The notes: generated by a model not told the origin, from the sequence alone. A stretch of DNA of 64,000 nt from Prorocentrum cordatum (GCA_963575745.1 CAUYUJ010000014.1:1-64000); one strand, 5' to 3'; counted from the first letter of the stretch, positions 1-50,900 are shown. Numbers and translations: made by a program.

Positions 1-90
1 CCAGCTCTCCGACCCCTCGATGTTGAGACCCGCCACGAGCTTCCTCATGGCCTTGATGCGCTTGTTCCGCTGTTCCTTGTCGGCCTTCTC
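1..90 (-). CDS. Exon of an uncharacterised repeat-domain protein (gene continues beyond window start)
   Basis: After a CAG|G acceptor at 93-91 the frame reads EKADKEQRNKRIKAMRKLVAGLNIEGSESW with strong GC3 bias. It is clearly similar to RIRVMREIVAGLGIEGSESDW in exon 3733-3993. Confidence 0.65.
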
Positions 91-3000
91 CTGCCGGGCT
101 GCGACAAGCCAAACCCCCCGCTCGCGCCATGCGAACAAGAAAGCACGACAGACGAGTTTTGCCATCTGCGGCCTCCAGGCCCTCGCTGGGACCCCGGACC
201 GCCAACCGAAAGACTCGTGACGAAAGGCCTGCCCCTGGGAGGGGGCCTGGACCTCTGGTGGGCCCACGTTATGAGCGAGTCATGGCGTCGAGGGTCTGGG
301 GAGCGAGCGAGCAAGTTGCACTGCGTTGTGGCTAGGCTAACCCTGGGAACCAACTAGCGACCCCCACCATGCCCTTGGAAATGATATCCCCTTCTCGCCC
401 CTGGAGGCGAGATCCAGCCCCCGGGCCCCTCAGTGCGGCATCCCACCGAGGGCCGAACCAGATTCCAATGAGAGCCTGAGAAAGTTGCATCACAAACCCA
501 ATACTATCCTAATCGGATACCGATCGGAGTCTGGCATGATTCAAAAAGGATCCCAGTAGGATCGGAACCCAGTAGAGCTCCACGATGGGACTCCACCAAA
601 GGAGTCCTCCATTGGATTCCCCCGTCGAACTCCCTCCATGGGACCTTCACCGTAGGACCCCCCAACAATCAAGCTATCTCGTATGACCCCTCCTAGTTAG
701 CTAGTGTTCCCCCATCGGACCTCCACTGTAGAACTTCCCTCTCACAGGACTCCTCCCATTGCACAACGCCATAGGACTCCCCACTAGGGCTCAGTTTGAT
801 AAAGTGAGTCAAGAACTGTGACGCCACGCAATGTATTAGGAGTTTGTGGGGCTCGGGAGCCATGTGGTGCAGGGTGCAATAGGCGTGGTGCAAGCTAAGC
901 AAAACAAGCGTTGTGGTGCAAGCTATACTGTGCAAGCTAGGTGGTGCAACCTCCGTGGTGCACGCTGGATATATCTAGAACAGCTATCGGGTGCAATCTA
1001 AGCGGCCACATCTACGCGGTGCAAAGTAAAGGATTCAGGCCGACGTGGGGGTTCAACGTCGACGCTGAGGTTGAGTTTCTGCCCGTATCACCTGAGCAAA
1101 GGAGGCTTACTCAAGCGAGATTCCCACTGTGAGAAGAATCCACCCATCCACCCTTGTCGTATGTCGTCGACAACGTGACTCCTACCACTGCTTCCGGGGA
1201 GAGGGAAATGGGGGAGAGTTTGGATTACTGGTGCTGAATAAAGCTGGCGGTGCAATGTGGGTGATATCCCTGGGGAAAGAAACCCTTCGGGACAGCCGAG
1301 GAACATCAAAACACCTACGGGCGGGCGTTGGAGAATTCTGCGCGGGGCGGGCGGAGGAAGGGGAGGATGAGGAGGCGTTTCTCAGATCCTCTCAGGCGTC
1401 CTAACTAAAGAATCCCTGAAGAATCCTCGCGGATTCCTTAGGGATCCGTCGCGAATCCCGCAGGAACCCTTGCGCATCCCCCAGGCCTCATTCAGGAATC
1501 CCGTGAGGATCCTCACGGATGCCTCGCGAATCCCTCAGGAATCCTTAGCAACGCTGCAAACGTTCGTTCGGCCTGGTAACCTTAGTTCAGCATCTGCAAT
1601 AGTTGTTATCAGCGCCTAAAGTTGAGGCGTTGATGGGGAGTCTCTCAGAGCGAAAAGGATCTCTGGGAGTCTCATGATCGAGGATGGAGCTTCGATCGAG
1701 GATGGAGGTGCGATCGATGGTCTGTCGATGGTACCCCTATAAGCTCAACGGTGTTCGAACGTTCAATGATGTTGGATTGAATTCGATAGTACGTTTAGAC
1801 TGTCTCTGGCCTGTCTCGGGGAGTTGGCCTGTCTGCGAGACTATTGAGGCCTCTGTTGAGCTGTCTTGCTGGCCTTACTCCCACCACCGCCTCTCCCCGA
1901 GCAGCTATGTCATTAGATAACCGTTCTGGGTGCTGGCGATATCGCTCGGCGATTCCCCCCCTTCAGAATTCCTTACGCACGTCTTGTGAATGCTAGGGGT
2001 AATAAGGGGGCGCGTTACGTTGTTCCCAGGGTTTTTCCACCCCAGCCGCCGCTCCCAACATCGCTACCCATTCCTGCGATGGACGAAGCCAATCGAACAT
2101 CATACCAATTCGATGATGCTTGTTTCTGCGTGTGCCGGCAGGCGCGGAATCGTGTGTATCCAGATGGTGTGTGGTACATGGCTGTTGCGCCCAGCTCCAG
2201 GCATCACCCCCACGTCTCCCTCCCTGGGCACAGCTATACACCCTCCCCGCCTCCCCCTCCTCTTCTCCTCTTCGCCCATTCTGCCCTCCCCTCCCCCCCT
2301 CCCCTTCCCATGTCCATCGACCCCCGTTTGTCACTATCACCTTCCCCTCTCCCCCACGGCTGCCCCCCTTCGTCCACTCGCCCTTCCTTCTCCCCCTCCC
2401 CTCTCATCCTCCTCCTCCTCCTCCTCCTCCTCCTCCTCCTCCTCCTCCTCCTCCTCCTCCTCATTATCATCATCATCAGCATCATCCTCATCACTATCAT
2501 CATCCTAATCATGTTCCTCTTCCCCTTCCTCCTCCTCCTCCCTTCCTTCTTCGTTGAACACCATCGCTTTACTGATAAGGCAACTCCAAGCCATAGCGTG
2601 TACTGAGCGGGGCAATTCCCCAGCGCTCCGTCCATGGGCGCTCCGTACATGAAATTCAGCCCCCGCCTGCTTCTGGACCTCGATCCTTCTTTTGCGTTAC
2701 GCCTGTGACGAAGCAGGCGCTTAAACAACAGACGACTTGGTGCATGCGTCTGCTGGGCACTCTTTTGCGGTATGTTGGAAAACAACCATGCCATACTGCA
2801 CTTATCCTGTAGATATTCCCCCTTGTAACGAGTGGAATCGGGACACGGACGCAAAAAGTAACCCCACGATGTTACACTCGTCTGAATCATGGCTGCTACG
2901 AGAACTGACACACCAAAAATGTGTTGCATTCGCCTGGTGCAGCCTCCGAGAAAGCAGTGGAATCCACCTAACCCTCCTCCGTGTACATCTCTTGACAACC

Positions 3001-47900: not shown

Positions 47901-50900
47901 TTATTCGAGCCGCTCGTTGTATACCATGCGAATTCTCAGCGCGCGCGTCGCCCCCTGGGGGGGGGGGGGGGGGGGGGGGGGGGCGACACACACAGTAGTA
48001 GAAGTATGTTTCAACGATGCCGACTCGGGCCAACAGACGGGGCCCTGGGACACACAAATTAATATACACAAATAACAGGATTCCGCATTTTTCCTCATAT
48101 TTTCTGGGTTTTCGTCTTCCCCCCCGACTTCCCATATTTTCCCATACGTTCTGGAAGAATCGACGATGGATTGTGTCCGTGTGTTTGTTTCCCTCCTGAA
48201 ACAGAAAAGGGGGGTGAGCAAAGGGTCGAGGAAGGGCCGCCAGGGCTGGACGAGGCTCGAGAAACTGGCCGGCATCCGCGTCGACCCCGGGGAGGGTCTT
48301 CCTCCTCCTCCCCCTCCTCCTCCTCCGCCCTCGTCCTCCTCCTGCTCCTCCTCCTCCTGCTCCTCCTCCTCCTCCTCCTCCTCCGCCCTCCTCCTCCTCC
48401 TCCTCCGCCCTCCTCCTATCTTGAGCGGAGTTGCCCTCGACTAGCCACCCACTCTTGACCGATTGTCTCGGGGCTCACCCAGCTCGGATCCCCAAGGCCG
48501 CCTCCCAGTCTGGGATGCTCCCGACGACTCGCAGCACGCGGCCGGGCGTTCGGAGGCTGGCGTGCTCGTTGTTCGAGGTGAGGTGGAAGATGTTTGCGTG
48601 GTCGTCTCCCGACATGCGCGAGAAGGGCGCGGAAAGGGGATGCGCAAAGTCGAAATAAAGCAGCACGTCGCCGGCGGGCACGGTGGCATTCGGCGGCGCC
48701 TCGAACTCCTGCATGCCACCCACGGTGCACAGGGGGTCGTCTGCGCAGCTGCGCTGGTAACAGCGCCCTGCGGCCTCGAAGGCGGTGGGATCCCTGTTGT
48801 AAGCTTTCTGCGGGTATTTCTCTCCGCCATCTTCGCCGTCATGCACCAGAAGCTCGAAGTGCTCCCCACGCGTGAGCGCACAGATGCCCCGCCCCCTGAC
48901 GCCGTAGGCCGCGTCGTCGTGGTAGGTGCAGCACGACGTCATCAGGGTCGAGTTCTTCGCCGCCGCCGCGCAGGCTTTGCTGCAGTCGTCCATGGACTTG
49001 CCGACGTCTGCGAAGAGTATCAGCGCATCGCTGCGCCTGTGCACGGTTTCCCCCAGGGCCGTAGGCGACCCGAGGAGAAGGAGGAGGAGAAGGAGGAGGA
49101 GGTGGAGGAGGAGGGGGAGGAAGTGGAGAAGGGGGAGGGGGAGGAGGAGGAGGAGGAGGAGGAGGAGGAGGAGGAGGAGGCGGAGGGGGAGGATGAGGAG
49201 AGGATGAGGATGAGGATGAGGATGAGGATGAGATGATGATGATGGATGATGATGATGATGATGATGATGATGATGATGATGATGGTGGTGTGGTGGTGAT
49301 GATGAGGATGATTGATGATGATGATGAATGATGATGATGATGATGATTATGAAGGATGATGATGATGATGAGGATGAGGATGAGGATGAGGATGAGGAGG
49401 AGGAGGAGGAGGAGGAGGAGGAGGAGGAGGATGGGGGGGATGAGGACAGGCCGCCCAAGCCCTCTGGAGAAGCCCTCCGTGCGCCTGTAGACGTCGCAGC
49501 TGTAGTCCTGCCGCAGGTCCTCGCACACGACCTGCCGCTCCCGCAGCTTCCGAGCGACGGGCGGGGCACCGCCGAGGAGGAGGCCACCACCCGGGGGTCG
49601 GGGGCGCCACGCCCTCGGGGAGGCGCGCGGCTTTTTTATCCTCGAGGGCGTGGCCCACAGGGGGCCAAGAGCACTCCAGTTGAGCAGGGACCGACCGTCC
49701 CGGCATTCCTAGGGAGGCCTGCCACGAAACGTTCGTGGAGCCCCAAGATGTTCGAATAAAAAAAGCAGTGGTCTTAGACCACAGCCCCGATGTGTTCAAA
49801 CAAGACAGCCTCGGCCAAAAATGTTCCAAGACCATTTCGTGGAAACCACACCAGGTTCTTAGAACAATGTTTGGTAGGCCGATCGGCACGACAGGACGCT
49901 TCGCCACTGCTTGAACTCCAGAGCCTCCCCAGACGACCCAAACGTCCAAAAAGACCTCCTCGAGCTTGGATCCTGCAGCCCTGGCTTCCACGAGGAACTG
50001 GCCAGCCAGCTCCAGCTCCTGACCCTCTTTCTCGCTTCTTGTTTCTCGCTGCCCACGCCAAGAGTCTCGCAGGCCGCTCTCATCCCCGGGGTGGTGGCCC
50101 CCCTTGGCACTGCCCGGGATGGTCAGAACATGTGGACCGCCCGGGAACACGGACTCGAGCTTGTTGGCGGGGAAGGCCTCCGCGCGGGGACGACCGGGCC
50201 AGGTGACGAACACCTGGTCGTTTGGGGACTGCAGGTCCCAGGCCGCCTCCATCGTTCCCGTCTGGGTGCTGGGCGCCTCCGTGGCCACGCCGCGCCACCT
50301 CACGCGGTCGCCCGCCTGGGGGGCCCGAGCGGCGCACGCACCACCGACCAGAAGCCCTGCCTTGAGAGGTCTGGGGGCACACTCTGCGTCGTTCTCTGAG
50401 GGGGTGCCCCAAAGCTCTTGTGGGTCTCCGGGGCCATCGCGGGATAAGAGAACTGCGCGGGGGCACCTGCCGGCAGGCGGGCTCCTTATCCGATGCTCCT
50501 GCCATCGTCTGGTGCGTCCGGCACGGAAGCGAATCACGGGGTGGGGACGGGGGGGCGCCTGGGGAAGCGCAGAGGGGCGAGAGGCGGCGCGGGGAGGACA
50601 GGAGGGGTACAATTGGACCTAGGCCTGGGCCAGAAGAGAACATCCTTCAGGTACATGGTGCCTTCCGCCGGCCCAAACACACAGAGAACATCAAAGGGCA
50701 CCCTCCCCAGGATGCGCAAGAACATCCGACAAGCATGAAGAATACTAGGCCCGAGCCGACCCCGATCGTATACCCGGTCCGACTGCAACTGTGCCCCCCA
50801 AACCCCACCCCTCCTGCACCCCCTTCACCACCCCGGCCACTCCCAACACACCCGCCACATACAGTCATCGGCCTGACCTAAGGAACGATGAATAAGTGAC

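Follow-up and report, generated by a model that had tools for sequence, protein, structure and literature searches.

We analysed a 64,000-nucleotide (nt) stretch of the nuclear genome of the red-tide alga Prorocentrum cordatum (GCA_963575745.1 CAUYUJ010000014.1:1-64000, hereafter the window), which carries a large, intron-rich gene and part of a second gene, both on the minus strand. Exact direct repeats of 7 to 9 nt straddle six of 14 intron junctions that were set without reference to repeats. These repeats exceed what chance and the AG/G splice consensus (slash, junction) provide, and those of the large gene end sharply. We infer that the 6-9-nt repeats are scars, of the target-site duplication (TSD) type, of intron gain by insertion at AG/G sites. 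On balance this is the probable explanation, with intron 91-3732 of the second gene excepted.

Placement of intron junctions

Junctions were set by protein comparison, using 19 homologues from other dinoflagellates (P0002-P0020, mostly from transcript-sized contigs), a homologue of the second gene (P0021) and the deposited P. cordatum protein model (P0001). For each pair of exons, fixed anchors were placed in frame and all frame-preserving, stop-free G(T/C/A)...AG pairs were listed. Each joined peptide was then scored by global alignment with the matching homologue segment; this scoring replaced one based on local alignment, which was confounded by variable flanks. As only G(T/C/A)...AG pairs were admitted, the splice boundaries are partly given by construction. 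Repeat length was counted as the number of identical bases leftward (end of the exon versus end of the intron) plus the number rightward (start of the intron versus start of the next exon), a measure that is independent of where the junction is drawn inside the repeat. The 14 resolved junctions are as follows, with leftward and rightward counts in brackets:

J1, 50316-53337, minus strand: GC-AG, 3022 nt, exact 6-nt repeat (2+4); best against 11 homologues, with a lead of 100 score units.
J2, 49614-50148, minus strand: GT-AG, 535 nt, 1-nt repeat; acceptor uncertain (49613 or 49640).
J3, 49037-49484, minus strand: GC-AG, 448 nt, exact 9-nt repeat (4+5); best against 13 homologues.
J5, 46038-47256, minus strand: GC-AG, 1219 nt, 5-nt repeat; one homologue and the deposited model.
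J6, 45302-45866, minus strand: GA-AG, 565 nt, 4-nt repeat; homologues and P0001.
J7, 30778-44986, minus strand: GA-AG, 14.2 kb, AG/C acceptor, repeat of 0 nt; an alternative junction, 30784-44983, has a 5-nt repeat.
J8, 30458-30660, minus strand: GC-AG, 203 nt, exact 7-nt repeat (3+4), or 10 nt if one mismatch is allowed; best against 18 homologues.
J9, 27754-30022, minus strand: GT-AG, 2269 nt, exact 9-nt repeat (0+9) lying wholly after the junction, so that the intron starts as the next exon does.
J10, 25427-27700, minus strand: GC-AG, 2274 nt, exact 7-nt repeat (4+3).
J11, 24158-25284, minus strand: GA-AG, 1127 nt, repeat of 4 nt exact (8 nt with one mismatch); two-intron search, 13 homologues; precedes an 11-codon micro-exon.
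J12, 23731-24124, minus strand: GC-AG, 394 nt, 4-nt repeat; homologues and the deposited model.
J13, 23364-23680, minus strand: GC-AG, 317 nt, exact 9-nt repeat (8+1); best against 13 homologues.
J14, 22728-23201, minus strand: GT-AG, 474 nt, 5-nt repeat; deposited model alone, the homologues leaving it unresolved.
JA (second gene), 91-3732, minus strand: GA-AG, 3642 nt, exact 7-nt repeat (4+3); P0021.

A further candidate intron lies between about 48520 and 47383; the junction given there by the deposited model does not continue the conserved frame upstream of it.

Support is firmest at J3, J8, J9, J10 and J13, where, for 6 to 18 homologues, the alignment with the joined protein continues through the junction. 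Compared with P0002 this protein is equal in length at four of these junctions and one residue short at J8. The long repeat is found only in the candidate that is best by homology, the four next-best candidates having 5 nt or less. In addition, joining the exons at the ten junctions J5-J14 yields exactly the last 543 residues of P0001. The homologue alignments and the agreement with P0001 argue against a gene-model artefact, in which the mRNA would not be joined at these points and the repeats would lie off the real junctions. In favour of an artefact, the junctions rest on protein comparison and not on spliced reads, the 5' end of the deposited model is faulty (110 residues in another frame), and the intron near 48520-47383 is unsettled; we judge this explanation highly improbable.

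A near-length protein search for transcript fragments of P. cordatum found none. Of two metagenome scans, the first gave no match and the second gave two distant contigs at 43-45% identity; one of the two (L001) is a single intron-free open reading frame (ORF) nearly from end to end, hence transcript-like, and they give no information on intron positions. RNA-like runs share 0.09-0.14 of the sampled words of 22500-32400, which is approximately the exon share but too small to count as evidence.

Repeat length compared with chance

The cognate repeats have a mean length of 5.50 nt, reaching at least 7 nt at six of the 14 junctions and at least 6 nt at seven. As a control, each donor was paired with the acceptors of the other introns, so that the AG/G consensus and the local composition were retained; these non-cognate pairs have a mean of 3.10 nt, and only 4 of 182 reach 7 nt or more. 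In 200,000 permutations the observed mean was never reached, and six repeats of at least 7 nt were reached once (an earlier run with 12 junctions gave 4 and 8 of 100,000). Among local alternatives, that is, frame-preserving pairs within 60 nt of 13 of the junctions (J14 left out), 3 of 1,091 have at least 7 nt. The excess of junction repeats over chance and consensus is therefore real. The original prediction had claimed that most introns of this stretch are bounded by direct repeats of 7-11 bp that are longer than the AG/G consensus gives, and had proposed shuffled donor/acceptor pairs as the check. With junctions taken from homology, the observed lengths do lie above the shuffle and above the local alternatives; "most" overstates the share of introns involved.

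The repeats might instead be attributed to chance, the AG/G consensus and a choice of junctions that was guided by the repeats. Real splice sites that do not belong together already share 3.1 nt on average, and about 0.3% of local alternatives reach 7 nt; there are roughly 15-200 alternatives per junction, so a free search finds some. This explanation accounts for three of the ten repeats listed in the original prediction (30789-31415, 49641-49958 and 45302-45869), which are spurious because the junctions were chosen by repeat. With homology-fixed junctions, however, repeats of 7 nt or more occur at six of 14, compared with 4 of 182 non-cognate pairs, and a single permutation in 200,000 matches that count. 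Chance is very unlikely as a general explanation, and for the six strong cases it is rejected.

Each of the ten predicted repeat strings occurs on the minus (sense) strand at the position given for it, and the protein comparison upholds seven of the ten junctions (91-3732, 23364-23680, 24158-25284, 25427-27700, 27754-30022, 30458-30660 and 49037-49484). Six of these seven have exact repeats, of 7, 9, 7, 9, 7 and 9 nt in order of position, while 24158-25284 has only 4 exact bases. An additional intron, 23731-24124, for which only the 4-nt GAGG had been reported, has both its repeat and its junction confirmed. Of the remaining three, 45302-45869 has its donor 3 nt off, and its protein is one residue short of each of the five homologues compared there; at 45302-45866 its 7-nt repeat falls to 4 nt. 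The other two are not introns: the exon upstream of 30777 ends at 44987, so that 30789-31415 is replaced by 30778-44986, and 49641-49958 is contained in 49614-50148 and would not lead in frame into the conserved next exon. The list also lacked 50316-53337, 46038-47256, 22728-23201, 49614-50148, 30778-44986 and the intron near 48520-47383.

Structure of the repeats

Donors are GC in seven introns, GA in four and GT in three, and the acceptor is AGG in 13 of 14. These splice sites are near the genome-wide figures for P. cordatum (donors 51.4/23.8/24.7%, AGG acceptor 79.7%; PMC10666404, in the available text), a likeness that is qualified by the prior restriction of candidates to such pairs. The six strong repeats do not share one register; their splits around the junction are 0+9, 8+1, 4+5, 3+4, 4+3 and 4+3. 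AG/G is inside five of the six, and therefore one short duplication can supply both splice sites; J9, the sixth, begins with GT and takes its AG at the end of the insert. In all six the first 1-9 bases of the intron equal the start of the next exon, which bears out the claim that the donor copies exon sequence. The claim of variable repeat length likewise held, with 7-9 nt among exact repeats and 6-10 nt when near matches are counted.

Beyond the repeats, identity over 36 nt on either side is 23.3/72 for cognate and 21.2/72 for non-cognate pairs. Gapped alignment of intron ends with the flanking exons gave cognate scores within the non-cognate range for the large gene. The repeats of the large gene thus end sharply, and since similarity stops at the repeat, a duplicated target fits better than a long duplication that has decayed.

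Such a duplication, tandem or segmental, or the decay of an internal unit, would make each intron a piece of the gene that matches its surroundings only near the splice sites. Introns have reportedly been created by tandem duplication of an AGGT-containing exon segment, a model said to come from Rogers in 1989 and from Hellsten et al. in 2011. The model fits intron 91-3732, the ends of which are decayed copies of adjoining repeat-unit sequence, and this is the only intron with an interior homologous to a flanking exon, in degenerate form. A second point in its favour is J12, which has a 9/10 in-register match 17-26 nt past the junction. The large-gene introns do not fit, as their similarity stops after 7-9 nt: the five strong cases have none beyond the exact repeat, whether ungapped or gapped, and their bodies consist of microsatellite or unrelated repeats. 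As a general account, duplication is rather improbable.

Intron 91-3732

The exception deserves separate description. Joined across 91-3732, the protein has the same length as P0021, residue for residue. The protein of the second gene is built of tandem units that end in ...CAG and start with GAG..., and the intron retains traces of them: positions 4-18 of the intron match positions 26-40 of the next exon at 13/14 bases, a homologue alignment extends approximately 24 residues into the intron, and 19/36 bases before the acceptor match the end of the previous exon. The 5' end of the intron is a decayed copy of a unit start, and the sequence at its 3' end resembles the end of a unit. The 7-nt repeat is probably better explained as the sharp end of a longer, decayed homology than as a TSD. 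The intron has the appearance of at least one decayed unit that is skipped from one unit boundary to another, with a putative origin by duplication or intronization. The insertion mechanism put forward in the original prediction is upheld in part: insertion with duplication fits the repeats of the large gene, while 91-3732 is better derived from the tandem-repeat architecture of its gene.

Intron bodies

The original prediction described the intron bodies as mutually unrelated. This is contradicted by common microsatellites and by at least two dispersed repeat families, which are nested inside the introns and are not at their ends. The J13 body is almost entirely (CCT)n-type microsatellite and that of J3 is mostly (CCT)n/(CAT)n; J1, J5 and J10 have microsatellite tracts close to one end. 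We considered and rejected the notion that (CCT)n blocks are mobile and generate flanking duplications: of 24 purine- or pyrimidine-rich tracts, only that of J13 has a long adjacent repeat, and the common words of tract flanks have a mean length of 6.1 in cognate and 5.3 in non-cognate comparisons.

Several other structures were observed within the introns. Self-complementary stretches of approximately 150-160 nt, forming long hairpins, are located at 23760-23921 in J12 and 24539-24691 in J11, and the former has a related copy at 28050-28147 in J9. J9 also contains a tandem repeat (28209-29111) with units of roughly 100-150 nt.

Element F1, approximately 233 bp in length, is present in four same-strand copies, all inside large-gene introns:

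29294-29525, plus strand: F1 copy in J9; abutting direct repeat of 25 nt (computed).
32153-32366, plus strand: F1 copy; abutting direct repeat of 5 nt (flanks read by eye).
39679-39910, plus strand: F1 copy; abutting direct repeat of 5 nt (flanks read by eye).
49681-49914, plus strand: F1 copy in J2; abutting direct repeat of 7 nt (computed).

The last copy sits in the false intron 49641-49958, about 40 nt from each of its boundaries. F1 shows that insertions with variable flanking duplications have occurred at this locus. Variable duplication length is typical of retroposition by long interspersed nuclear elements (LINEs) or of break repair, and the flanking repeats of F1 look like those of retroposition of the short interspersed nuclear element (SINE) type.

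A second element, F2, is approximately 200 bp long, has imperfect terminal inverted repeats of about 20 nt and looks like a miniature inverted-repeat transposable element (MITE). Two copies are found within J11 and J14, about 27-35 nt from the donor ends. The copies are at approximately the following positions:

14026-14203: F2 copy.
14812-14968: F2 copy, inverted.
22995-23165: F2 copy.
25099-25257: F2 copy.
40110-40295: F2 copy.
40481-40617: F2 copy.
41715-41898: F2 copy.
52822-52992: F2 copy.

Origin of the repeats

Under the insertion reading, DNA would enter at a staggered break in coding sequence that holds or adjoins AG/G, and fill-in of the stagger would duplicate the target. Splicing in dinoflagellates would require little beyond a 5' G(C/T/A) and a 3' AG(G). 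The donor could then come from the upstream copy of the target, and the acceptor from its downstream copy or from the insert's end. The insert would be spliced out precisely, with one copy of the target staying in the mRNA. Candidate agents are an Introner transposon family, LINE-type retroposition and one-off break repair with filler DNA. In two Fugacium-type homologue models, 958 and 773 residues are encoded within 3,403 and 2,858 bp, compared with more than 30 kb here. These short models are compatible with lineage-specific intron gain or growth, which makes them weak side evidence.

A number of observations weigh against this reading. The sample is small, at 14 introns from two genes in one 64-kb window, and eight of the 14 have repeats of 6 nt or less, a range that non-cognate pairs also attain. 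No terminal inverted repeat abuts the repeats, and none scoring above 8 was found within 80 nt of either intron end. Microsatellite excepted, the intron termini have no second copy inside the window. J13 and J3, which are among the best cases, are nearly pure microsatellite, unlike a transposon, and microsatellite blocks elsewhere in the window generally have no adjacent flanking repeats. The junctions are predictions from proteins, limited to G(T/C/A)...AG pairs. Finally, J9 and J10, both of 2.3 kb, contain nested repeats and have the look of old introns but carry perfect duplications, which requires either constraint or a recent origin.

Functional constraint would mean that the matches were kept, or evolved, for splicing, for example by re-creating the 5' splice-site context or through shared pairing with small nuclear RNA (snRNA). 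Besides the perfect duplications in long, old-looking introns, it is in keeping with published exon starts of the GH type which, like intron starts, are discussed as splice motifs in the accessible text of one report (10.1101/2020.10.14.339549). However, the repeat words and registers differ among introns, so that no single RNA partner could read them all, and eight of the 14 introns manage without a long repeat. We regard constraint as distinctly improbable.

A broader proposal that grows out of the insertion reading is that a large share of P. cordatum introns are one-off inserts of arbitrary DNA (filler, microsatellite or retroposed fragments) at staggered breaks and are not copies of an Introner family. 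Such inserts would become introns at once, as the duplicated target holds AG/G(C/T/A), which would be sufficient for this spliceosome. We offer this tentatively and consider it unlikely in that general form.

Comparison with known intron gains

Dinoflagellate Introner-like elements have TSDs of 3, 4, 5 or 8 nt, with 8-nt TSDs in some Polarella classes, and take GH or AGGH from the TSD in several registers (Roy et al., 10.1101/2020.10.14.339549, in the available text, where P. cordatum is not among the five genomes). The window introns share with them TSD-type repeats over the splice sites, a 5' G(A/C/T) derived from duplicated target, an AGGH target that can yield both splice sites, several registers and exons that start with GH. 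Six of the 14 introns have a duplication that overlaps or abuts the splice sites, and in all six a splice site is recruited from the target; transposon termini or terminal inverted repeats directly inside the duplication were not found. As far as the available account goes, Introner-like elements form families by sequence similarity, many have inverted repeats, and TSD length is fixed per class. In contrast, within this 64-kb window neither a family nor a terminal inverted repeat could be demonstrated, the repeats vary in length (7-9 nt), and two introns are nearly pure microsatellite.

"Introner elements" have already been reported in P. cordatum by Dougan et al. (2023), at 2.4% of introns. 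In the available text their definition asks for an inverted repeat of 8-20 nt together with a direct repeat of 3-5 nt, both no more than 30 bases from each end of the intron (PMC10666404). The repeats described here are longer (7-9 nt), lie exactly on the junction, have no inverted repeats and occur in six of 14 introns. In our own inverted-repeat scan, J8 alone has one of comparable size within 30 nt, and it is weak and imperfect (11 nt with one mismatch, lying 10 and 15 nt in from the ends of the intron).

In Daphnia pulex, neo-introns have a direct repeat of 4-12 bp in which terminal exon bases recur at the opposite intron end, and their unrelated inserts are ascribed to repair of staggered double-strand breaks (Li et al. 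2014, PMC4202315, in the text available). This is the mechanism that the original prediction proposed, and repeats of the Daphnia type are found here. The Daphnia gains are polymorphic and dated and their insertion was demonstrated, whereas in the window we infer it; donors here are GC, GA and GT, not only GT as in Daphnia. Another published claim is that intron/exon borders generally have direct repeats at or close to them and that these mark insertion, based on a search of up to 80 bp around the borders. The present repeats differ in that they were measured exactly at independently fixed junctions and against mismatched pairs.

Our literature search on introners and intron gain in dinoflagellates and P. 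cordatum found no paper with 7-9-nt junction repeats for P. cordatum, and Prorocentrum is absent from the main text, as available, of a 2025 survey of 8,716 genomes. The mechanism of insertional intron gain is already known in dinoflagellates and Daphnia, and the window adds examples.

The large gene and its surroundings

The window has a G+C (guanine plus cytosine) content of approximately 60%. Homologue tblastn places a single large gene on the minus strand, running from about 53.5 kb to 22.7 kb. The regions at 23-31 kb and 45-50 kb are not separate genes, as had been supposed: they belong to this one gene, with a 14.2-kb intron between them. Its exon 30023-30457 (minus strand) matches the deposited P. 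cordatum protein P0001 (663 residues) at 100% and the 19 proteins of other dinoflagellates (approximately 430-1150 residues, many from transcript-sized contigs) at 52-66% identity. A Pfam search found no domain in this family. Three micro-exons, 24125-24157 (33 nt), 23681-23730 (50 nt) and 27701-27753 (53 nt), are required for collinearity with the homologues, and each lies between introns of 0.3-2.3 kb.

The first 110 residues of P0001 are in a frame shared by no homologue (48513-48842 versus 48511-49044, minus strand). The homologues, of about 1000 amino acids, run on in the other frame, and their match extends over additional exons upstream as far as at least 53481. By this comparison the public gene model seems to be truncated and mis-framed at its 5' end, and intron J3 falls in the wrongly framed part. 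No placement above 53481 was found for the N-terminal ~190 residues of the homologues; an assembly gap is located at 53596-53695.

Two long minus-strand ORFs, 53696-55090 and 56305-57573, lie upstream of the mapped exons; one is truncated by the assembly gap and the other encodes a coiled coil with a Cys-rich motif. They may represent a non-LTR (long terminal repeat) retrotransposon, such as a LINE. This assignment is a lead: there is no significant Pfam hit and no PDB hit, and a protein atlas gave only weak RVT_1 clusters (0.82-0.88, under the 0.9 level).

The left end of the window holds part of the second gene, which encodes a tandem-repeat protein with units of about 85 residues; its homologue P0021 has four or more units. 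The gene is seen at 1-108 and 3733-4002 (minus strand), and no further exons were found between 4 and 22 kb. At the other end, 61890-62940 is an array of about 1 kb with strong third-position G+C periodicity that is open in one plus-strand frame only and encodes a Leu/Val/Arg-rich repeat with no Pfam match. Rfam gave no match in the window.

Significance

Dinoflagellates are among the most intron-rich eukaryotes, and the origin of their introns is an active question. Alone, one window does no more than add examples to a known mechanism. What it contributes is a definition-free measure, junction-repeat length against mismatched pairs, that shows a clear excess and finds it in six of 14 introns. 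If that share holds genome-wide, an insertional origin would cover far more introns than the reported 2.4%. If, in addition, the one-off view is true, relaxed splice-site needs would turn ordinary insertion mutations into introns, which would explain both the high usage of GC and GA donors and the intron load of dinoflagellates.

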